Shown here in pieces: positions 4,872 through 49,109 of a stretch of DNA of 49,109 nt (position 1 is its first letter; each line of letters begins with the position of its first letter). The DNA is taken from the IMG/VR virus record IMGVR_UViG_3300037780_000133; one strand, 5' to 3'. Under the pieces are notes generated by a model. The model was not told the origin of the DNA and searched no databases. It saw only the letters and a program-made list of their open reading frames with translations. The position numbers and the translations under genes were made by a program. Source of the DNA: a virus.

Positions 4872-5173
4872 TTCTTCGCCTTTGATTTGGCCTTCGGCTT
4901 CGCCTTTGGTTTTGGACGGAACTGGAAGGTCTTAAAGCGAGACTGCAGGTCAATCCGAACGGCGTTCGCTTCCCCTGCAGAATTGCTGAAATTGTAGGTC
5001 TCGATCATCAAACAACACTCAAACAAAAGCCGCTTTTCAGCGGCCAGGAGTGTGTCTTTTGACTTCAGTTTTCGATACGTTCCCATCACGGCCCGGGCCG
5101 GGGAGTTTAGAAGCTCTGCATGCCGGGCTTCCTTGAGAAGAGGCATCAGCTTGTCTAGCGCCATCGGTTTCAT
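4868..5173 (-). CDS. Hypothetical protein with a Lys/Pro-rich C-terminal tail
   Basis: ATG at 5173 with GAGG 9 nt upstream. It has an ATGA overlap with the endolysin start. It contains palindrome copy 2. Confidence 0.45.
   Translation of the reverse strand: MKPMALDKLMPLLKEARHAELLNSPARAVMGTYRKLKSKDTLLAAEKRLLFECCLMIETYNFSNSAGEANAVRIDLQSRFKTFQFRPKPKAKPKAKSKAKK
4955..4969. promoter_or_regulatory. Palindrome copy 2, CCGAACGGCGTTCGc, nested inside a CTGCAGG/CCTGCAG inverted repeat (4943-4980)
   Basis: Read directly from the sequence. 14 of 15 bases match the consensus. Confidence 0.5.
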
Positions 5174-21842: not shown

Positions 21843-23507
21843 TTAGCGACCGCGTTGTTCGCGCAGCTTCAGCGATGATTGAACGAGGCGGTCATCCGGA
21901 GAGGCGGAATTGCCGCCGCCTCCCGCATTGCCTGAGATGTTTGGATCCTCAACTTTGCGCCGGCCGCCTTTCGGTGCAGTCGCAAGCAGATCTTTCGCAT
22001 TCGCGACGGTCATGCCCTTCTGGAAGGCGAGCTTTCTCGCGAGCGCCTCGCAGCCCCTCGCTTCAGGCAGATCCAGGATTGCCTGTGCGCGAGCCATCTC
22101 ATCGTCGGGCTCATCTTCAGCGTCAGGATCCGGATCATCTTCAGCGTCGGGATCCGGCTCATCTTCAGCGTCAGGGTCCGGCTCATCCTCAGCATCAGGA
22201 TCCGGGCCGTCTTCAGCGTCAGGATCAGGATCATTACCCTCGCCATTTGTTGAGTTATCCGGATCGTCATTCGCATCCGGATCTGGATCTTCGTTGGCGT
22301 TTTCATCGTCCAACTGCTCAGCCAACTTTACTTTGGCGCGCGAAATTCGAGTTTCGGTCGCACCGGAGCCCAAAAGAATGCCGCGAGCCGCACTTCCTTT
22401 TGGCAGCAATTCAATAGCGGCAGCGATCCGGTCGGTGGCCTTGCCGTCGCCAGACAGGGCGGCAAGGGCTTTTCGTGTTGACGACATAGCGTTCTCCTTG
22501 TTGCGCTCGCGGGATTGCGAGTCGATGGTCGGCGTTGACCCCGCCGCCGGGGTATTTTTGGAAATGAGGGCGCGAAGTTGATCAAAGGCGGCCTCTTCAG
22601 TCTCGATTGCATCGATGAGGCCGTGATCGAGGCCTGAATGATCTGCGAGATCATTGCGCGCGTCGAATAAACGGGCCTCAGTCTCATAGAGAGCCCCCTC
22701 ATCGAGAGACGGGCGACCGACGTTCACATCGCGCACAAAGTCCCGATACACCTGGTCAATCATAGCCTGCAGATTCGCTATCGCCTCCTCATCGAGCCCA
22801 TGGAAACTGGCAAATTCGGTTTTGCGACGTCCGCCTTGAATAGGCGTGACACGGATGCCCCACTTTTCCATGGCGCCACTGACATCGTGGTGAAGCATCA
22901 CCGCACCAATCGACCCCACTGCGGCGGTCCGACTGGCAGTGATCCGATCCGCCTGTGATCCGATCCAATAGGCGGCGCTTGCTATCAGCTCGCCGTGAAC
23001 GTGGATTGGCTTTCCGCCGTTTCCGGCGCGAGTTTCGCGCATTAACTCTGACAGCTGGTACAGACCATCGTGAACAACGCCGCCCGGGCTGTCGATATGG
23101 ACGAAAATGCCTTCAACACGAGGATCTTCCATCGCGTTCGAGATTGCCCGCTGAAGACTGTCATAGCCATGGTACCAGTGACCCCACCAAGCTTCACCTT
23201 CCGCGAACAATGGCGTGTCGATTTTCAACGTGGCGACGCCGTCTTTTAACGCCATACCCCATTCAAGCTCGTCATCGGGCTCGCCAAGCCACATCGGAAC
23301 ATAAGCATGGCCTCCGGGCGGCGGGGGAGGTGGTTCAGAAAAGAATGCGTTCTGATCTGGGCGCACACCTCCAGAGGCGCTGCCATTACCCTCAGGCAGC
23401 GCCTGCATGAACAAATTTGCCAGCTGCTCCGCACCTTGCGGCGTCATCAAAAGCGGGCGGCCAATCAAAGATCCTAAACGCGCATGCAGCGCGGAGTGAG
23501 ACGGCAT
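21843..23507 (-). CDS. S49 (SppA/ClpP-like) head maturation protease with a C-terminal scaffold-like region, gpC/Nu3-like
   Basis: Contains the IDSPGGVV and SAAYWIGSQADRI motifs. It is downstream of portal with a 1-nt overlap and has an acidic repeat-rich C-terminal half. Confidence 0.8.
   Translation of the reverse strand: MPSHSALHARLGSLIGRPLLMTPQGAEQLANLFMQALPEGNGSASGGVRPDQNAFFSEPPPPPPGGHAYVPMWLGEPDDELEWGMALKDGVATLKIDTPLFAEGEAWWGHWYHGYDSLQRAISNAMEDPRVEGIFVHIDSPGGVVHDGLYQLSELMRETRAGNGGKPIHVHGELIASAAYWIGSQADRITASRTAAVGSIGAVMLHHDVSGAMEKWGIRVTPIQGGRRKTEFASFHGLDEEAIANLQAMIDQVYRDFVRDVNVGRPSLDEGALYETEARLFDARNDLADHSGLDHGLIDAIETEEAAFDQLRALISKNTPAAGSTPTIDSQSRERNKENAMSSTRKALAALSGDGKATDRIAAAIELLPKGSAARGILLGSGATETRISRAKVKLAEQLDDENANEDPDPDANDDPDNSTNGEGNDPDPDAEDGPDPDAEDEPDPDAEDEPDPDAEDDPDPDAEDEPDDEMARAQAILDLPEARGCEALARKLAFQKGMTVANAKDLLATAPKGGRRKVEDPNISGNAGGGGNSASPDDRLVQSSLKLREQRGR
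22109..22228. repeat. Five tandem 24-bp coding repeats encoding PDPDAEDE units
   Basis: The units start at 22109, 22133, 22157, 22181 and 22205, as read directly. Confidence 0.8.
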
Positions 23508-25120
23508 CAGGCAGCTCCTTCCCGGACGGGCTCAGGTTGTGATTCAATGAGGGCCGCGACTTCAGCCATCGGCTTAGGCGGGGTGACGTTGAGTTTCTCG
23601 AAGAACTTGGCTTCACGGGCGCGCTGCATCGTGACTTTTTGCCAATCGCGACCCTGCTTCGCCGTGACGTCTTGCAAGCTGGAGGCACCGATTTCCATCT
23701 CGATGCCGGCACCCATCGGTTCCTTGGTTGGGTCGACCCATCCGCGAGCAGAACCAAGCCAAATACCATCAAGCCAGGCGCGCGGTTTCGCAAACAGGTC
23801 TGGAAGCGCCGGCGGGACCTTCAGCTCGCCAGAATCCTCAGCGTCATCAATCACGCAAAGCAGAACAGGCCGCGCGACTTTCGAAACAAACAAATCGATG
23901 AAACTCTCGACCGATCGCCAAACCTCGACGAGCGCGGCGCGCGCGCTCGAGTAATTCGTTTTCGACCAGTCCATGGTCAGCTGCTCATATGAGAGACCCA
24001 ACGCACTCGCGATATGACGCGAGAACACACCCGCAAAAGCCTCGAAGTCGCCGCCCTCGGAGTTGGATGTGAGCATTTCGACTTTCTCAGTCGGAAACAG
24101 TTTTTGGATCCGTGTGCCGTCTGCGAGCCGCGGGCCCTTGGCGCCGTAATAGGCATCTGACGCGTTCTGAAAGCGCACGATATCGTCCACGCTCAAAGCA
24201 TCTTCAATCCCGGTCGTGGAGCGATCCGTGTAGATCACCATAGCCATCACAGCTCGCACGACAGCTGACTGAATTTCAGCGTCGCTGTATCGAGATAAAT
24301 CTTTGAATTTCTTCAGCGTGGCCATCAGGGTTCCCCAACCACGGCGCTGATCGGCTCGCTCTTTACGGCGGAGGTGCAACACCACCGGGCGGCCGTAGTG
24401 GTTTTGTTTGGGCACTGCCGTCCATGTCATCGCGTCGCCGGTGCCACCGGACGTCCAGTCTTGAGGGTGGGCGTTCCGGATGTGGTAGCGAACAACATGT
24501 CGACCATTCGACTCAATACCTGAGCGGAGCGTTGGCGTATCGGGCGCGTTATTTGGATTGCTGACGCGATCCGGGTCGATCACGTGCAAACTTGTGCGAA
24601 ACGGAAATCCATACGCCGGCACTTCGTCCCAACGCAGAACGACAAAAGCTTCGTTGTCGCGGAAATAGTGCCTGGCGATCAGGTTGCACAGGCCACCCCA
24701 ATTTTCGTCTTGCTCCCAATCGCACCGCCAAAGCGCATCCTCACACCAGTCGTTGAAAACCCGCTCAATCTCATCAGCGAGGTCGGCAGTTTGATCGGGG
24801 TCCAAGCCCAAGGCTGCACCGTCCGGCAGCGCCGAGAAACGAAGCCCGCGCATGCCAAACGCCATATCGATGCGGCGATCATTGGCAGCCTGCGCCAGGG
24901 GCTCATTCGCTGTCAAATCGCGAGCACGCGAGACCGCGAGATCGCGCCCAAATGTTCGATTCTCCTGATCCGGTGGCGTCAGCGGCGGCGTCCAGCCAAT
25001 CAGACTTGGGCCACCACGCGTCGCCGCCTCAGAGATGGACGCAGATCGTGTCGGTACCGGTAAGCTGTTTGCATTGCGACGGTGAACGCGTTTGAGCGCG
25101 TTTTGACGAGACGGGTTCAT
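23507..25120 (-). CDS. Portal protein, lambda gpB family
   Basis: A 537-aa protein positioned between gpW/TerL and the S49 protease, with a GGAG ribosome-binding site. Confidence 0.8.
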   Translation of the reverse strand: MNPSRQNALKRVHRRNANSLPVPTRSASISEAATRGGPSLIGWTPPLTPPDQENRTFGRDLAVSRARDLTANEPLAQAANDRRIDMAFGMRGLRFSALPDGAALGLDPDQTADLADEIERVFNDWCEDALWRCDWEQDENWGGLCNLIARHYFRDNEAFVVLRWDEVPAYGFPFRTSLHVIDPDRVSNPNNAPDTPTLRSGIESNGRHVVRYHIRNAHPQDWTSGGTGDAMTWTAVPKQNHYGRPVVLHLRRKERADQRRGWGTLMATLKKFKDLSRYSDAEIQSAVVRAVMAMVIYTDRSTTGIEDALSVDDIVRFQNASDAYYGAKGPRLADGTRIQKLFPTEKVEMLTSNSEGGDFEAFAGVFSRHIASALGLSYEQLTMDWSKTNYSSARAALVEVWRSVESFIDLFVSKVARPVLLCVIDDAEDSGELKVPPALPDLFAKPRAWLDGIWLGSARGWVDPTKEPMGAGIEMEIGASSLQDVTAKQGRDWQKVTMQRAREAKFFEKLNVTPPKPMAEVAALIESQPEPVREGAA

Positions 25121-25130
25121 GGGGGCTCCA

Positions 25131-25176
25131 AGACAAGAAAAAGCCGTCCCGGCTCACGAAATCGGAAGCCGGGACG
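25131..25176 (-). terminator. Strong intrinsic terminator immediately upstream of the portal start
   Basis: The minus strand reads CGTCCCGGCT-12 nt-AGCCGGGACG followed by GCTTTTTCTTGTCTT. The portal ribosome-binding site and ATG follow. Confidence 0.7.
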
Positions 25177-26011
25177 CAGGGACGCTCGGGAGGAACTCGA
25201 GCGATCCGAAATTCGACGGACAGGCCGGAAGTTCAGGCGACCCGCCTGTCCGCGATCGCTCATCGCGTCGCCAAACTGGCGATGGCGCGCGAGGCAGATC
25301 GATTGAAAAAGGTACGCCCAAGCCGGAACGTAATGACCGACCCGGATAGGTCAGCGAGAAACCGGGCTTGGGCGCGGCGATGACGGTCACACGCAAGTCA
25401 AAGACTGGGGGAGACGAGGGAAAATTACTTAGAAAACCCCGTCCGGGACGCCATCACCTCCGCTTTCAGGCTATTATGGCCCTATGGCAGATTTGAAAAA
25501 GTTGGGGCTCACCCTGCGCTGCCAGCGTCTGCTTGGCGGGCGAGCCCCGTTCTTAACGGGGGCAACAGCACGGCGTGACCGACCCGCCTCAGCGCAAGAG
25601 ACAGTTGCCGGATCGGCCTCACGTTCGTTTTGGTTTCCCGGTCACCCGGTCTCCTCAACTTGATCTGGCGCCGTCCCAACCGGGCTATCTCGCGGATCAA
25701 GTGCAGAGCGCCTTGCGAGCTAACTCTGACCCCCTCTCGGGTATTTTGAATGGGGCTGGCCCGCCTGCATGTACGAACCAGCCCCGGCCAGTGCGAGTAG
25801 AGTAAGCGCTGGCAAACTGAAATTATCGAGCGAGTTGGTCGATCAACTCCAACTGGGCCACCTTCCCAGCTCCACCGATCGGCAGTCGGTTTCTACGCCT
25901 GCATGTCTCCGATTTTCCACGCTGTCGCTCAAGCGCATGATGGCAATTCCCGTTACTTCACGCAACATAACCAACGGTCCCCCGCGGGCACTTTACATGC
26001 GATCTCCAAAA
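25177..26011 (-). ncRNA. ORF-free, hairpin-dense segment; candidate large structured RNA or other non-coding element. The strand is inferred from the flanking terminators.
   Basis: No convincing ORF in any of the six frames. There are at least 10 perfect 6-10 bp stems, and the segment is bracketed by two minus-strand terminator-like hairpins. Confidence 0.3.
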
Positions 26012-26026
26012 CCGAACGCCGTTCGG
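26008..26026 (-). terminator. Hairpin CCGAACGGCGTTCGG plus TTTT directly after the gpW stop (palindrome copy 3)
   Basis: The same 19-mer as at 27-45, but on the minus strand. It begins 1 nt after the TAA at 26028-26030. Confidence 0.4.
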
Positions 26027-26027
26027 A

Positions 26028-26261
26028 TTACAATCCTACCCGGATCCCGCCGTCCCGCGGAGCGTTGGCGCAGCCGCAATCCCGCGCCTCTTGTTCCAGG
26101 TCGCGGAGCTGCCGGCGAATTTCGTCGGGCGATGCGATATGGAAGCGGGCTTTGCTGCCGGCATATCCCGTCTCTTCAAGCACTTTTCCAGTCGACATAG
26201 CGGTCAATCGCGCTTTCAGAGCAGCGATGTCAGCCTCTATTTCGGTGCAAGATCTGGCCAT
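26028..26261 (-). CDS. Head-tail joining protein, gpW-like
   Basis: A 77-aa protein immediately downstream of the GpA terminase with a 1-nt overlap, as in lambda. Confidence 0.65.
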   Translation of the reverse strand: MARSCTEIEADIAALKARLTAMSTGKVLEETGYAGSKARFHIASPDEIRRQLRDLEQEARDCGCANAPRDGGIRVGL

Positions 26262-28438
26262 CAGCTAGTCCCTCCGTGTCCATGTTTGCGACCGAGTTCC
26301 TCGAGCCGGCGTTTGTCTTCATCGCTCAACCCTTCGGGCTTCGCGTCATCTTCTGCATCGGCCGGCGCTGCAGATCCACTCCACAGTTTCTCCAACCCAC
26401 CAGCACCGGCAAGCGTAGGGTCTTCCTCCGGTAAAACTGAGGCATATACGTCAGCCCAGCGTTCAAAATCCCAAGTGTCGATTTGAAGCGAGCACGCGGC
26501 GGCCAAATTGTAGACACCAAGATCCAGCGCCTCGTTCGGCTGTCCGCTAATCTTTACCCATTCGCCATATGGCTTTTTCGGGTCGCTGAAACTGAGTTTC
26601 TCCGCAGTGAGCTGTTTCGCTTCTTCCTCAGTTAGGTCACCTGGAAACAGGATAGCTCGCGACGGCAGGGACTTGCCTTTTTCGGCTCGCAAACCATCGC
26701 CCATTCCGCCGTAAAACCTGCCTTTCAAGGTGTGGCCGCCGACTTGTAGCGGTACGATTTTTGACACGGTCCGCTTGTTGATTTTGACCTTCTTCGGCGT
26801 CGACTGCGTGACCGCGGGCGCTTCGTGAGAATTTCGCCCTTTGGCCCCGAAAATCGCAAACACGCCTTCGGCCATGCGACCACGGCAGTACGCGTAGACT
26901 TCCTGCGTCCAGTTACCCGAGTCGACGAAACAGCGAGATGGCGCAGCCGCCTTGAACGCGGGCCCCGACCAGGTTTGTTTGCGCTGCGCGTCAAGATCTT
27001 TCCAAACCTGCAGTTTGGTTGGGTCGCCGGGCAGGATGCCTTTGGCCACCCTGAACCCGACTCCCCCGCGGCCCCAGGCGTAAACCGCCCATTCTAGACG
27101 GTTCACCTGGACGTCGACGGCCATGGTCAGCACCGCGCAGAATGGCGGCACTGTACCTTCTTCCCATACACGACCAGAGGCCTCGAGCAACGCTGCTACC
27201 TCGGGACGGTCAACAATTCCGTCGAAAGGCAAGCCAAGCGTTTGCTGAAAGAACACCTTGGCTTCAAAACGCCCCTCAACGACCTCTCGCCATTCGCGCC
27301 AGATCACGTTCCAGGCAATTTGCGGGTTCATGGCCTGCCAGATCTGGAAACTCGCCGGCCGGCCCTCGCAGTTTCTTGGGCTCACCCATCGGCGCCCCTC
27401 ACGACGGAACGCCCATCGATCGATCTCGTCGGCTGGAATGATCTCGGGTGGCTGCGGATTGTCTTCCCGATCGCTCGGGAAATACGGAACCCATCGGCCC
27501 TGTTGGATCATGTCATGGCGCTGGTAACTCTCAGCGAGCGCGCCGCAGCCCTGGTTCTCCTGTTCGGGCCCGGATGCCTTGCAGTAGAACCCAACAGTTT
27601 GGTCCGGATCCTCAGGGGTCGGACCGACCATATTTTCAAACTTTAGCGCGCTGAAATCGCCGCAATGTGGACATGGCACCACATATTGAGCCTGATCGCC
27701 TGCTTCAAATTCAGCGGTAACGCGGCACCCGCCGGCCTCTCCCTTCAGCGCCTTCTTTCCAGGCGTGGACGGAATGACCAGTTTGAATTCAGGTCCAAAA
27801 AACGTGCCGCGCTTACGGGCCTGGTCAATCGGGTGGCCGCGATTGTCGACGTCGTCATCGTACTCAGTCGCCTCTTCGGCCACAATGAAGCCAATCGAGA
27901 CCATTTGCAGCGGCTTCGAGGTGCCGGCGGAGTCGATAATCGCAAAACCACCAGGGAACCGCTTGAAGGATCCAGTCGACTTTTCGGAAGTTCGCCCGGT
28001 CTGGCTCGCGATCTTCCGCGTGATTTGCGGCGAGGCCTGCACAGTCGCGTCAAATTTGACCTTGTTGTATTTTTTCGCCTCGTCAGTCGACGGAAGCAAA
28101 TACAACATTGAACACGGCGACTGATCGACACGCGATAGGCCTGCATTCAGAGCGCATTCTGACTTTCCGGTTTGAGCGGATCCTCGGATTGTTACCGTTT
28201 GCACAGGATCTTCCGGGCCCATGCGATCCATCGGCACCTTCAGATAGGGCAAAAGGTCATTCGACCATTGCCCGGGCTTCGGGGATCCAGATTCAGCGCT
28301 AACGAAGCGATACTTCGCCGCCCATTCGTGAACCAGGAGCGGCTCTTCTACCGGCGCTTCCTCCGCGATCGCGCCGCCAACGACTGCGAATGCTGACGCG
28401 AGGCCAGTGAAGGTTTTCCGCAGCTCCTCCGGCGTCAT
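26261..28438 (-). CDS. Terminase large subunit, GpA family
   Basis: A 725-aa protein with Walker A-like GSAQTGKSE, and the size and layout typical of lambda gpA. Confidence 0.9.
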   Translation of the reverse strand: MTPEELRKTFTGLASAFAVVGGAIAEEAPVEEPLLVHEWAAKYRFVSAESGSPKPGQWSNDLLPYLKVPMDRMGPEDPVQTVTIRGSAQTGKSECALNAGLSRVDQSPCSMLYLLPSTDEAKKYNKVKFDATVQASPQITRKIASQTGRTSEKSTGSFKRFPGGFAIIDSAGTSKPLQMVSIGFIVAEEATEYDDDVDNRGHPIDQARKRGTFFGPEFKLVIPSTPGKKALKGEAGGCRVTAEFEAGDQAQYVVPCPHCGDFSALKFENMVGPTPEDPDQTVGFYCKASGPEQENQGCGALAESYQRHDMIQQGRWVPYFPSDREDNPQPPEIIPADEIDRWAFRREGRRWVSPRNCEGRPASFQIWQAMNPQIAWNVIWREWREVVEGRFEAKVFFQQTLGLPFDGIVDRPEVAALLEASGRVWEEGTVPPFCAVLTMAVDVQVNRLEWAVYAWGRGGVGFRVAKGILPGDPTKLQVWKDLDAQRKQTWSGPAFKAAAPSRCFVDSGNWTQEVYAYCRGRMAEGVFAIFGAKGRNSHEAPAVTQSTPKKVKINKRTVSKIVPLQVGGHTLKGRFYGGMGDGLRAEKGKSLPSRAILFPGDLTEEEAKQLTAEKLSFSDPKKPYGEWVKISGQPNEALDLGVYNLAAACSLQIDTWDFERWADVYASVLPEEDPTLAGAGGLEKLWSGSAAPADAEDDAKPEGLSDEDKRRLEELGRKHGHGGTS

Positions 28439-29187
28439 CCAGCCTGGGCCTCAGGAGCAAGATCGTCTCCTGACATCAGCTGATGTGCGAATTCTTCCAG
28501 CTGCTTGAAGCGATCGAGGGCTTCAGGGTTGGAATCCGTTATCTCGCGGCTGGCGGCGGCGGCAAAACCATTCCAACCGCCGCGAAACACATCGTCCAAG
28601 ATCGCTTTGACCTCTGCCGAGCGTTCTTCAGACGCGAACATGGCGGCAATGCGCTCAGCCGCGGGTCCGATGGCGCGCAAATGCTGCCCTTGTCCCTCCG
28701 CAATGGCGTATGCGATCGCAGCATGGGCGCTGGTGGCCGGGATCAGCAAGCCCTGAGCCTCATACTCGTTGCGTTCGAGCCGCATCGCCTCGTAGTGGGC
28801 TTTGCGGCGGGTTGGATCCAACGGGACAACCGTTCGATCCGCTTCCGGCTCGGGCTGGGCGGCCGCTGCATCGTCAGGCGTGTCAGGCTTCGCCTTCGGT
28901 TTTGGCGCCGCTGCTCGAACGGAATCCGGTACCGCGGGCTTCGCAGTCAGTCGCGAAGGCCGCTTATTGCTGGTCTCACCAGCGTGAATCGCGCCGCGAT
29001 AGTCATCACGGTACTTTTTGATCAGCGCTTCTGCATCAATGAACAGCGTGCGGCCGATTTTCTGGAATAGCTCAGGATATTTTTTGCGCTGGCGCGTAAT
29101 GGTTGAGAGGTGAACTTCGATGCCTTGGTCGGCGAAATACTTTTCGGTGTCCTTCCCGGAGCGCCAGCCGTCGGGAGCGCCTGACAT
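28435..29187 (-). CDS. Terminase small subunit (candidate)
   Basis: It has an ATGA overlap with TerL, an N-terminal HTH-like segment and a low-complexity linker. Confidence 0.55.
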   Translation of the reverse strand: MSGAPDGWRSGKDTEKYFADQGIEVHLSTITRQRKKYPELFQKIGRTLFIDAEALIKKYRDDYRGAIHAGETSNKRPSRLTAKPAVPDSVRAAAPKPKAKPDTPDDAAAAQPEPEADRTVVPLDPTRRKAHYEAMRLERNEYEAQGLLIPATSAHAAIAYAIAEGQGQHLRAIGPAAERIAAMFASEERSAEVKAILDDVFRGGWNGFAAAASREITDSNPEALDRFKQLEEFAHQLMSGDDLAPEAQAG

Positions 29188-30278: not shown

Positions 30279-31449
30279 GACCACCCTCCGATGTCTGGGC
30301 CTCGTCTTCGGCGACATCGTCCCGTCGAACAGTGATCTGATATCCGTCAAATCCAAGGTCCTGAAGATTATCGACCAGCTTTGAGCCAATGATTTCGTGC
30401 AGCCTACCAACGTGCTCACCATCGGTGGCTGCGATCACCAGGCATTGTTCGATTTGCCAAACCCTGCACCCGAGCAAGGCCTCGCCGATATGAGCCCGCC
30501 ATTTGCCACTCCCGCCTAGACGGGCGGCGAGGTACTGAGCGCTGATCGATCTGAAGAATGGCAGGTCCGCCTGAGCACGATCCCCCTGAACCGCCATGCC
30601 GGAGTTTCCGCCTGGCAGTGACGGTTGCGATTTTGTCCACAGACTGGCGTCGCGTGCGCGTTTTTGAATCCCTTGGGGTGAATCATCCTTATAATGGTCC
30701 GTGGACAAAATGTCCGAGTAAGCGGACAAAATGTCCGAGTTAGCGTCCAGAAAACCTTTTTGCGGTCCTTCTTTTTCCACAGCCGAAGGGGCGAGCATTT
30801 CAACCCTGTCTTCAAACTGCAGCGCCGTGAGTTCACTCGCATGATCAAGGATCCGAGACGGCCAACCATCGAAGGCCGCAACAAGCCCGCTCTGACAGGC
30901 CTCTATCTCACGCGCCGCCTGGAACTCCTGTTCAGCCAAAAGTGCCCCCTGAAGCGCTGCGATGACGGCCGCACAATTCTCAGCAGTGGCTGGGGCGCCG
31001 ATCAGGTTTCGGCGCTCGAGCGCGCGTGCGGCGCCGGCCCCAATGCGCCGACGCGTGATCATGAGCCCACGAGCAAGCCACTGCAGGCGCTCCCAGTGGA
31101 CACGAAACAAACGCGCGTCATACGGCCCGCCGCGGCGAGCGTCGAGGTCGAGCACCAAATGCTGCAAGTCATCGCCAGACCAGGCCTCTAGAGCCCGTCG
31201 AAAGGATCTGCCGTCTTGACGTGCGACGATGCGAAGGCCGGCGAGAGAGCACGCAGAATACCCCGTCTGCGCATCGGTGAACATTGCCAGCGCCCCAAGC
31301 CAGCCCGCCCGCCCGGATGGCTCCAAGACGGCGTTTTGGGCGTTCAGCAACAACCGAACGCCGTTCGTTTTTTCGGATATACGTTTCCCGCTCACGGAAA
31401 CCCCCATGTTAAAAAAATTGGCCGAAGAATTGTGGACGCGGCGCCCCAT
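30265..31449 (-). CDS. Hypothetical protein containing internal iteron-like repeats; replication-initiator candidate. Start uncertain (31449, 31407 or 31284).
   Basis: A long ORF with no strong ribosome-binding site at any candidate start. Palindrome copy 4 lies in its 5' region. Confidence 0.4.
   Translation of the reverse strand: MGRRVHNSSANFFNMGVSVSGKRISEKTNGVRLLLNAQNAVLEPSGRAGWLGALAMFTDAQTGYSACSLAGLRIVARQDGRSFRRALEAWSGDDLQHLVLDLDARRGGPYDARLFRVHWERLQWLARGLMITRRRIGAGAARALERRNLIGAPATAENCAAVIAALQGALLAEQEFQAAREIEACQSGLVAAFDGWPSRILDHASELTALQFEDRVEMLAPSAVEKEGPQKGFLDANSDILSAYSDILSTDHYKDDSPQGIQKRARDASLWTKSQPSLPGGNSGMAVQGDRAQADLPFFRSISAQYLAARLGGSGKWRAHIGEALLGCRVWQIEQCLVIAATDGEHVGRLHEIIGSKLVDNLQDLGFDGYQITVRRDDVAEDEAQTSEGGHVET
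30703..30740. repeat. Two tandem 17-bp repeats, GGACAAAATGTCCGAGT, with 21-bp period; each contains the palindrome GGACA-AAA-TGTCC
   Basis: Read directly: 30703-30719 and 30724-30740. Confidence 0.7.
31354..31367. promoter_or_regulatory. Palindrome copy 4, CCGAACGCCGTTCG, followed by T6, with degenerate GGCGTT(C) half-sites at 31331-31346
   Basis: Read directly from the sequence. Confidence 0.5.
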
Positions 31450-39399: not shown

Positions 39400-39413
39400 C
39401 CGAACGCCGTTCG
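39400..39413. promoter_or_regulatory. Palindrome copy 5, CCGAACGCCGTTCG, in the leader of the ParB-like operon
   Basis: Read directly from the sequence. Confidence 0.5.
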
Positions 39414-39531
39414 CTTTGCGCAGGCTGAGCTGCCGAATTTTCCAATTCGCCGTGGTGACCGATCGGGATCCGCACGTCTGCCCGCAAGGGCCGCTTAAGC
39501 AGAGGCGGGGCCGGGCATTCCGTCGATAAGA

Positions 39532-48380: not shown

Positions 48381-49001
48381 ATGACCGACGAGCTTCAGGA
48401 ACTGCCTTCAGACGCGGAAGAGTTTTGCGCAGAATTGCCCGTGCGGGCCCACCGAGCTTTGAGAGATAATAATGTCCAAACGTGGGAAGAGGCGGCCGCG
48501 ATCAGTGAGAAAGTTTGGCTGAACACACCAAATTTCGGGCGCAAGGCGCTCAATGATTTGAAAGCGGCGCTGGCCAAGCGTGGGCTGTATACTCCGGAGG
48601 ATCTGAGTAAAGACATCGCCTACGCCGCAGGCCTGCGGGATAATCGCAAACTCTATCACTCGACCTTGATCAATTTTGCGTTCGCCTTCGCGGGTTTGCG
48701 CGAGAGCGAGATCATGATGTCAGGCACGCTGCACGGCGAAGAAACCCGCTTTTATCCACCGAGGCTTTATATCAGCCGCAAGGCGGCCGAGCTGCTGCGC
48801 ACACATCCGGAGCTTCGAGCGCTCGATATCCAGGACGCAGATGCGATCGCTTTTGACCCGAACAAGCGAACGGATCCGGAACGTCGAGCCGAGATTGTGG
48901 AGCAACTCTCCGCCTCAGGGGCAGGGGCCCGAGTAGCTGTAATCATTGAGAAATTTGCCGCCCAGGCCGGGACGTCGAATGAAGAGCTGCGGAAGAACTA
49001 G
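48381..49001 (+). CDS. Protein with an N-terminal RNA polymerase alpha-subunit C-terminal-domain-like (HhH) module
   Basis: ELPVRAHRALRDNNVQTWEEAAAISEKVWLNTPNFGRKALNDLKAALAKRGL aligns by eye with the E. coli alpha-CTD sequence [51 protein letters not shown]. Confidence 0.6.
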   Translation: MTDELQELPSDAEEFCAELPVRAHRALRDNNVQTWEEAAAISEKVWLNTPNFGRKALNDLKAALAKRGLYTPEDLSKDIAYAAGLRDNRKLYHSTLINFAFAFAGLRESEIMMSGTLHGEETRFYPPRLYISRKAAELLRTHPELRALDIQDADAIAFDPNKRTDPERRAEIVEQLSASGAGARVAVIIEKFAAQAGTSNEELRKN

Positions 49002-49109
49002 GGAAGAGCCGAACGGCGTTCGGTTTTAAATGAGAAGAATCAGGGGACTAGCTGAAATGCCTGACACCTTAGCAGGGGAGCGCCTTCAGCCACTCGGCCA
49101 CCTCTCCGC
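48983..49109. repeat. Terminal direct repeat, identical to 1..127
   Basis: Identical 127-bp string at both ends of the window. Confidence 0.95.

Follow-up and report, generated by a model that had tools for sequence, protein, structure and literature searches.

Large pseudoknotted RNAs are rare in bacteria and phages, and the biochemistry of those described earlier has often been unusual (Weinberg et al. 2017, PMC5737381). Among the phage-borne examples, GOLLD and ROOL are several hundred nucleotides (nt) long, fold into multiple helices with pseudoknots, and have no known protein partner or function, with GOLLD being divided into one conserved and one variable part (PMC12286853, PMC5737381). 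A different kind of structured RNA, exemplified by HK022 put, Bacillus EAR and conAn2, is found within or at the head of mobile-element operons, upstream of intrinsic terminators, and acts in cis only (PMC8191782, PMC9378689). The conAn2 element of conjugative plasmids occupies 260-600 bp of intergenic sequence, EAR and put being smaller (PMC8191782). Here, we describe a locus that resembles both kinds in part, located in the virus record IMGVR_UViG_3300037780_000133, a stretch of 49,109 nt that is referred to below as the window. Between a gpW-like open reading frame (ORF) and the portal gene of this phage is a 907-nt gap (25121-26027) that, on comparative sequence evidence, encodes a structured RNA of a previously uncatalogued class on the gene-sense strand. 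We rate it as a new class within a known kind, that of large structured phage RNAs or leaders.

An earlier note on this DNA had drawn attention to the gap with the statement that the portal gene directly follows W in lambda-type head modules, and this holds true. Among 114 lambda-family loci with portal identities below 45%, the spacing from the preceding ORF to the portal has a median of -4 nt, is 20 nt or less at 88 loci, and reaches a maximum of 179 nt. In L100 (Martelella) and L199 (45% portal identity), gpW directly abuts the portal gene, with no insert in L199. In the window, where the sequence and the ORF list place all late genes on the minus strand, the intervening gap contains no plausible ORF and has the base composition of the rest of the genome (a G+C content of 0.57-0.62, similar to the flanks), both as the note had proposed. 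No ORF in the gap matches Pfam or PHROGs, and none is conserved among relatives. The central proposal of the note, a large structured RNA and not a gene, is now strongly supported, the fold being kept through compensatory changes, with an excess of G-U over A-C pairs on the gene-sense strand.

In this phage, the RNA is predicted to be about 0.65 kb long (about 25130-25785). It would start at hairpin P0 and end at the terminator that precedes the portal ribosome-binding site; its core, some 330 nt in length, is composed of 12 helices, a pseudoknot among them. The large structured RNA of the earlier note therefore survives at less than the proposed 0.9 kb, as the first 220 nt or so are variable spacer. 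Helices were identified by a helix search and by inspection of alignment A2 (seven sequences, minus strand of window 25428-25749), and were modelled as two covariance models, R1 (5' motif to J4/5) and R2 (P6-P7). From the gpW-like ORF to the portal gene, the features are as follows.

26008-26026, minus strand: T1, a palindromic hairpin CCGAACGGCGUUCGG with UUUU after it, immediately downstream of the gpW stop codon (from the sequence)
25786-26007, minus strand: variable spacer, unconserved, diverging with an indel of about 90 nt even from the closest relative, L081
25752-25785, minus strand: P0 hairpin (GGGGCUGG.../...CCAGCCCC) with a conserved loop CAUGCAG, preceding the AAUACCC motif
25735-25745, minus strand: 5' motif AAUACCCGAGA, invariant and single-stranded; nearly invariant in all type-1 RNAs, and also found in L128 and L126
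25558-25734, minus strand: Domain I, closed by the long-range helix P1 (25731-34 with 25558-61), from A2, pair counts and R1
25704-25728, minus strand: P2 of Domain I, with a CGCAA loop (A2)
25658-25702, minus strand: P3 of Domain I, with a variable tip (A2)
25638-25649, minus strand: P4 of Domain I, with an invariant GUGA (GNRA) tetraloop (A2)
25579-25611, minus strand: P5/P5a of Domain I (A2)
25515-25596, minus strand: pseudoknot of the P5a loop CUUGCGCUG (core 25591-25596) with CAGCGCAG (core 25515-25520) in the P6 internal loop
25458-25548, minus strand: Domain II, with P6 (25538-48 with 25504-14), P6a, a U-rich linker, P7 and P7a, from A2 and R2
25459-25491, minus strand: P7 (25487-91 with 25459-63) and P7a (25479-82 with 25468-71) of Domain II, which flank the internal loop AUA / GAAAG
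25204-25457, minus strand: 3' accessory domain of hairpins (for instance, 25315-26/25362-75 and 25218-25/25244-51), shared by L081, L118 and L119 only
25183-25203, minus strand: hairpin CGCUCG-AGUUCCUCC-CGAGCG, with an anti-Shine-Dalgarno-like CCUCC in the loop, from folding of the region before the portal
25130-25175, minus strand: T2, an intrinsic terminator (GUCCCGGCU...AGCCGGGAC then GGCUUUUUCUUGUCUU), from the sequence and folding
25118-25129, minus strand: portal Shine-Dalgarno GGAG (25126-25129) and start codon (25118-25120), from the sequence and ORF list

When folding of the gap was compared to that of shuffled sequences, z-scores of -5.6 for the minus strand and -4.65 for the plus strand were obtained (20 shuffles per strand). 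In A2, 92.1% of the cells of the 72 pairs are paired, as compared to 34-48% in slid controls where partners were moved by 1-3 columns, and 36 of the 72 pairs show changes on both sides, as compared to 2-10 in the controls; none of 500 shuffles reached the observed values. Compensatory changes on this scale exclude chance hairpins. The helices contain 38 G-U but only 6 A-C pairs, and thus the structure holds on the gene-sense (minus) strand only. Model-fitted alignments, which lean towards the model, agree, with 98% and 92% of cells paired and double changes in 17 of 27 and 16 of 24 pairs. As far as can be judged from aligned relatives, the fold and its strand are well supported.

The pairs with both-side changes are found throughout Domain I (one in P1, four in P2, six in P3, two in P4, and three each in P5 and P5a), and 8-9 of the 11 pairs of P6 covary. 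The pseudoknot is formed by 7-9 contiguous pairs in six of the seven sequences, with covarying versions in L120 (UUGUGCUG/CAGCACAG) and L123 (CGCAAUG/CAUUGCG), and is absent in L124. Many junction nucleotides of the core are invariant; for instance, the P3-P4 junction is UUGAGGA in all cores but that of L124, where it is UUGAGCU. Beyond the core, 21 of the 86 pairs predicted by RNAalifold in the accessory domain, which extends for about 250 nt past P7, stay paired through double changes. The T2 terminator is kept with compensatory changes in L118 and L119, and analogous terminators are present in L120, L121, L122, L126 and L127. Compensatory versions of P0 are found in L119 (GGACCGGC/GCCGGUCC) and L122 (GGGCCGAUC/GAUCGGCCC), the place of P0 being taken by an unrelated hairpin in other relatives.

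All 13 stems listed in the earlier note are complementary, one of them with a 1-nt bulge, and ten correspond to conserved helices: the terminator 25145-54/25167-76, 25201-06/25254-59, 25219-25/25244-50, 25261-66/25279-84 (predicted with a shifted outer register), 25317-26/25362-72, 25334-38/25349-53, P6 (25504-10/25542-48), P4 (25638-41/25646-49), P3 (25658-65/25695-702) and P0 (25752-59/25778-85). Compensatory changes, which the note had asked for as a check, are present in six of these ten in alignments A2 and A4; they are strong in P3, P4, P6 and 25317-26/25362-72, and are seen at one to three pairs in the terminator and 25219-25/25244-50. Covariation in P0 was judged by eye only, and the other three matched stems are weakly supported. 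Two of the listed stems, 25545-49/25557-61 and 25561-66/25604-09, are rejected because they clash with the covariation-supported helices P1, P6 and P5, and a third, 25832-37/25844-49, is within spacer that has diverged even in a relative of 94% identity. The two hairpins that were said to bracket the segment are both present, the one after gpW being a weak terminator, as it is followed by only four U residues.

Within the core, an 8-codon frame (25613-25651, minus strand) reads GUG ACC GGG AAA CCA AAA CGA ACG UGA, with its start in the P4 tetraloop and GAGGA 6 nt upstream. The frame has the same length in all seven cores and ends at an invariant UGA. A coding role was considered and rejected, as the variable columns in A2, counted by hand, number 3, 5 and 5 at the first, second and third codon positions and so show no codon periodicity, and the frame is best seen as a by-product of constraints on the RNA. 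It is probably not translated, though ribosomes may still bind at this position.

Relatives were found through portal homologues of 47-97% identity, yielding ten related loci and seven core sequences. The closest, L081, was found by a genome scan and is a prophage in a Henriciella metagenome-assembled genome that is 94% identical over the region; within the gap, identity is about 98% in the portal-proximal part, and the sequence is scrambled over the initial 220 nt or so. The high identity of L081 was rejected as a sign of constraint, since identity is mosaic and the terminase region is equally near-identical. A protein search added a graded series of portals (86, 81, 73, 70, 69, 64, 60, 47 and 45% identity), and comparison of their contigs revealed an insert before the portal wherever portal identity is at least 47%. 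By nhmmer and blastn, L118, L119, L120, L123 and L124 share the core with the window, down to about 70% identity, and the spacer (25786-26007) has no nhmmer homology in relatives other than L081. The RNA accompanies portals of 60-100% identity, and tentatively one of 47% (L128), and is absent at 45% identity (L199) and from the 114 more distant loci. Thus, the RNA is confined to one clade of lambda-type temperate phages, the host of which is probably Henriciella (Hyphomonadaceae).

No match was obtained when 25000-26150 was compared by distant-mode blastn to phage and plasmid collections, and a portal scan of IMG/VR found nothing closer than 38% identity, indicating that the clade is absent there. 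Scanning viral contigs for the motif TTGAG..GGTGAC..GTGARGCCGA gave no matches; the same scan of metagenome contigs gave 70, nearly all of which are in unrelated coding sequence as judged by their flanks, the only real one being the known L118 contig. Model R1 recovers all seven known loci (110-168 bits) and has no credible match among 117 further portal loci, with E-values that are rough on account of a short calibration. A match in L100/L072 (E of about 0.05-0.9) is inside the terminase gene and is ascribed to chance. In L128, R1 gives a weak match at the same position (20 bits, E of about 1e-4 to 1e-3), and, because its fold z-score is -1, L128 is counted as a tentative distant member only.

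Three forms of the RNA are seen within the clade. The full core is found in the window, L081, L118, L119, L120 and L123, whereas L124 has P1-P6 and no P7. Model R2 matches six of the seven type-1 loci (not L124), and in addition L121 (24 bits, E of about 1e-5) and L122 (20 bits, E of about 3e-4). In these two loci the RNA is of a reduced form where, by eye, a short hairpin takes the place of P2-P5, and the 5' motif, P6 and P7 are kept. In the case of L125, the pre-portal insert (1167-1563) shares the GCCGAUAAG motif with L123, and apparently also has a P3-like hairpin, the CCCGAAAGGG motif and a P7-like module in a different arrangement; it is matched by neither R1 nor R2, and may represent a third variant. 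L081 (OZ245793.1, 3598631-3608232) and L122 (3549137-3560636 of the same chromosome) are related but distinct prophages about 49 kb apart in one Henriciella metagenome-assembled genome, which suggests tandem lysogeny, L081 carrying the full RNA and L122 the reduced form.

The gpW-portal junction is also occupied by protein-coding cargo. A D12 adenine methyltransferase gene is found in the slot in L121 and L124, with other small ORFs in L124, L126, L127 and L128, and the junction is a cargo hot spot in this clade. The cargo ORFs are at the following positions of the respective loci.

L121, 3501-4331
L124, 3112-3513, 3948-4763 and 4790-4990
L126, 1-141 (partial; its end may resemble a staphylococcal-nuclease-like protein)
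L127, 899-1306
L128, 181-435

The 3' end of the RNA is contiguous with the leader of the portal gene, and this leader appears to be a module of its own. When the last 100 nt or so before the portal were folded in 11 clade members, eight were found to have a hairpin whose loop is of the CCUCC type (UUCCUCC or similar), followed by a strong GC-rich hairpin with a U-tract, and then by a Shine-Dalgarno sequence and AUG. The module is found in L118-L122, L126 and L127, independent of whether the large RNA is present. In L123 and L125, a C/U-rich internal loop in a long stem is found instead of the CCUCC hairpin, and in L124 there is no leader module, the RNA being separated from the portal by the methyltransferase gene and a 66-amino-acid (aa) ORF. 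L124 is thus the one locus with no leader module after the RNA, and it is there that the junction is GAGCU instead of GAGGA. The arrangement of CCUCC hairpin and terminator is suggestive of a translational or transcriptional control element for the portal in its own right, and is a candidate for such a role.

How does this RNA compare to described systems? A cmscan of the whole window against Rfam 15 gave no match at the gathering score, and around the gap (24900-26300) only chance-level matches at E of 10 or less. In L119 and L123, no family was matched at the gathering score, and none was credible at E of 10 or less; a 29-nt cobalamin match (E=7.1) is limited to L123, with no counterpart in the window or L119, and involves bases that are not conserved. 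No report of such an RNA for this clade was found in the literature. The RNA resembles GOLLD and ROOL in being phage-borne, several hundred nt long and composed of multiple helices with a pseudoknot, with no known protein partner or function, and resembles GOLLD in having a conserved and a variable part (PMC12286853, PMC5737381). However, neither covariance model is matched in the window, L119 or L123, and GOLLD and ROOL are often next to tRNA genes, whereas ARAGORN found no tRNA or tmRNA anywhere in the 49-kb genome. Also unlike GOLLD and ROOL, this RNA is at a fixed site in the head-gene operon, contiguous with the portal leader, at about ten loci of one alphaproteobacterial phage clade. The link to GOLLD, ROOL or introns that the earlier note had raised is therefore not borne out by the Rfam search; for group I and II introns there is no match, and gpW and the portal are intact.

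The likeness to put, EAR and conAn2 is one of arrangement, as the RNA is flanked by T1 and T2 and is followed by the essential portal and head genes, a position that would suit an antiterminator. There is no detectable similarity in sequence or structure to these elements, and no Rfam family was matched (the library was not checked for models of put and conAn2). In addition, put and EAR are much smaller, and relatives with no large RNA still have the terminator. The conserved pseudoknotted fold and invariant junctions, upstream of a terminator and a Shine-Dalgarno sequence with which the CCUCC loop could pair, recall riboswitches and anti-Shine-Dalgarno leaders, but here 220-300 nt or so separate the core from the terminator, no aptamer class is matched, and no ligand or metabolic gene context is evident. 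The earlier label of a moron fits in part. Like a lambdoid moron, the insert separates two genes that are neighbours in related phages and has a terminator (T2) at its end, but it has no protein-coding gene, and no promoter was detected in a scan with an E. coli-type consensus. In the case of phi29 pRNA, a phage RNA tied to the portal and packaging, the analogy is positional only, resting on the terminase and portal neighbourhood, and there is no Rfam pRNA match. Lambda-type packaging with TerS and TerL needs no RNA.

The reading that we favour, and would place somewhat below an even chance, is of a clade-restricted structured RNA that acts in cis on read-through of T2 or on translation into the portal gene. 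The RNA would have no promoter of its own and would be made as part of the late transcript. Co-transcription with the late operon is likely because no promoter-like site was found, because the RNA begins only 8 nt after the preceding stop codon in L128, and because it is always in the sense orientation. The search for sigma-70-like promoters covered 24900-26400 and used an E. coli-type consensus only; no conserved upstream motif was found either, and proposals that CARAAT serves as a -10 element or the P0 loop as a -35 element, or that a Caulobacter-type consensus applies, were rejected for inconsistent spacing and conservation among relatives. Acting in cis, the RNA would affect what passes into the portal and head genes. 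One option is that it helps polymerase to read past T2, in the manner of put, EAR and conAn2 at their terminators. Another is that the invariant single-stranded GAGGA between P3 and P4 is a mimic of a Shine-Dalgarno sequence, which, by pairing with the CCUCC loop in competition with the portal ribosome-binding site, would act as a relay. Since the 3' end runs into a portal leader that is found throughout the clade, a cis role is at least as likely as a role as a free-standing RNA. The cis reading also draws on L124, where the lack of the leader module coincides with GAGCU in place of GAGGA, and has a precedent in the intergenic antiterminator RNAs of mobile-element operons (PMC8191782).

Several observations do not sit easily with a cis-acting leader. 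The large RNA is dispensable, with L126 and L127 keeping the CCUCC hairpin and terminator in its absence, and L199 having no insert. The halves of the RNA can stand alone (P6-P7 in L121 and L122, P1-P6 in L124), which is odd for a single integrated sensor, and in L124 the RNA is upstream of a methyltransferase gene and not of the portal. The cargo hot spot at the gpW-portal junction fits an accessory, trans-acting element. Complementarity between GAGGA and CCUCC is expected for any Shine-Dalgarno-like pair, and their co-loss is represented by one locus. Moreover, the fold is derived from 6-8 independent sequences, all of one clade, and the cis role and both ends of the RNA are predictions.

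The main rival, which we regard as a real possibility if well short of an even chance, is an accessory element that would act in trans as a free-standing non-coding RNA, in effect a non-coding moron. Such an RNA would be released by its own promoter or by 5' processing, and by T2 at its 3' end, and would act on the host or on defence systems, or form an RNA-only particle as GOLLD and ROOL do. Terminator-like hairpins on both sides, an elaborate fold with a pseudoknot and invariant junctions, and a patchy, modular distribution among close relatives, including absence from L126 and L127, are all consistent with cargo of this kind, as is the presence of D12 methyltransferases and other small genes in the same slot; large phage RNAs of unknown function are, moreover, a known kind (PMC12286853, PMC5737381). 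It is less easily reconciled with the lack of a promoter-like site in 24900-26400, with the 8-nt spacing in L128 and the constant sense orientation in the late operon, with a 3' end that is contiguous with the portal leader, or with the lack of neighbouring tRNA genes and of a match to the GOLLD and ROOL models. An improbable alternative is an RNA-processing element, either a self-cleaving ribozyme or an RNase-directed module, that separates the terminase-gpW message from the portal-head message and sets their relative stability. The location between genes of a long late operon whose products are needed in very different amounts would suit this role, as would the invariant unpaired nucleotides, the pseudoknot, and the A/U-rich single-stranded CA(R)AAUACCC at the 5' edge that is kept even in relatives without the core. 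No known ribozyme model in Rfam is matched, however, known self-cleaving classes are far smaller, simple stabilisers need no conserved junction sequence, and the halves are found separately.

The two alternatives that the earlier note had left standing are both rejected. A DNA-level element (an origin, a packaging or recombination site, or a protein-binding array), or chance hairpins in a GC-rich spacer, would account for both strands folding better than shuffles and for the six occurrences of the T1 palindrome in the genome, but is very improbable, as the G-U excess (38 versus 6) restricts the helices to the sense strand, there are no internal repeats, and compensatory changes are present in 36 of 72 pairs. 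In lambda-type phages, cos is upstream of the terminase genes and not here, which also counts against a DNA element. The least probable explanation that we considered, with almost no weight attached to it, is a decayed or frameshifted protein gene, such as a dead methyltransferase or homing endonuclease. Protein genes are indeed found at this junction in relatives, and a decayed gene in relatives had been named beforehand as an outcome that would refute the RNA; none was detected. Cargo proteins of relatives find no remnants in the gap by tblastn, Pfam and PHROG matches are lacking, stops are present in every sense frame, indels of 1, 2 and 14 nt within conserved blocks are not multiples of three, and substitutions compensate pairing and show no codon periodicity.

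The genes around the gap, from the ORF list, are arranged as follows.

28435-29187, minus strand: 250-aa ORF that heads the listed late-gene series, before the terminase large subunit
26261-28438, minus strand: terminase large subunit
26028-26261, minus strand: gpW-like 77-aa ORF, the upstream neighbour of the gap, with a weak PHROG head-tail adaptor match only
23507-25120, minus strand: portal gene, followed by the S49 protease, and then by the decoration protein and capsid genes

Counterparts of the gpW-like ORF in relatives are 77-85 aa, with a Pfam gpW match in one. The portal aligns over its full length (100%) with homologues, N-terminus included, also with those lacking the insert. The C-terminal third of the S49 protease ORF (21843-23507, minus strand) contains a long acidic repeat, with about eight PDPDAEDE-like units, within a protease/scaffold protein. 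Positions 1-127 of the window are identical to 48983-49109, indicating a circularly closed assembly and a complete genome of about 48,982 bp; contigs of relatives are 46.7-48.3 kb. A 206-aa ORF (48381-49001, plus strand) has a match to the Pfam RNA polymerase alpha C-terminal domain (E=1e-7), which is unusual in a phage, and could, if the match reflects function, bear on transcription control. The T1 palindrome is also found after the upstream gene in L122, L126 and L127. This 15-nt perfect palindrome, CCGAACGSCGTTCGG, is present at six places in the window, as compared to 0.34 expected by chance (27-41, 4955-4969, 26012-26026, 31354-31368 and 39400-39414, with 49009-49023 duplicating the first). 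The sites are at gene boundaries, usually with a T-run on one side, and the palindrome may serve as a common terminator or be bound by a phage regulator.

What, then, would this RNA mean for the phages that carry it? It is possible, if rather unlikely, that the entire head-tail operon of a lambda-type phage is gated by the core, acting as a self-sufficient RNA machine of a new class, whether in the form of a large factor-independent antiterminator, a signal-sensing relay, or an assembly like those of GOLLD and ROOL. If an antiterminator, it would be several times larger than put or EAR; if a sensor, portal read-through or translation would be switched by a long-range relay from a Shine-Dalgarno mimic to an anti-Shine-Dalgarno loop; and if an assembly, an RNA-only assembly would be encoded inside the packaging module. 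The system is tractable, with relatives that represent natural half-deletions and a complete genome of only 49 kb, and the gpW-portal junction, as a cargo slot between two terminators, would be useful for finding further accessory elements. The RNA is at a fixed site in the packaging and head operon, beside a terminator that polymerase must pass to reach essential genes, and for this reason could reveal how RNA structure balances the synthesis of terminase, portal and head proteins, or a new antitermination or sensing device.

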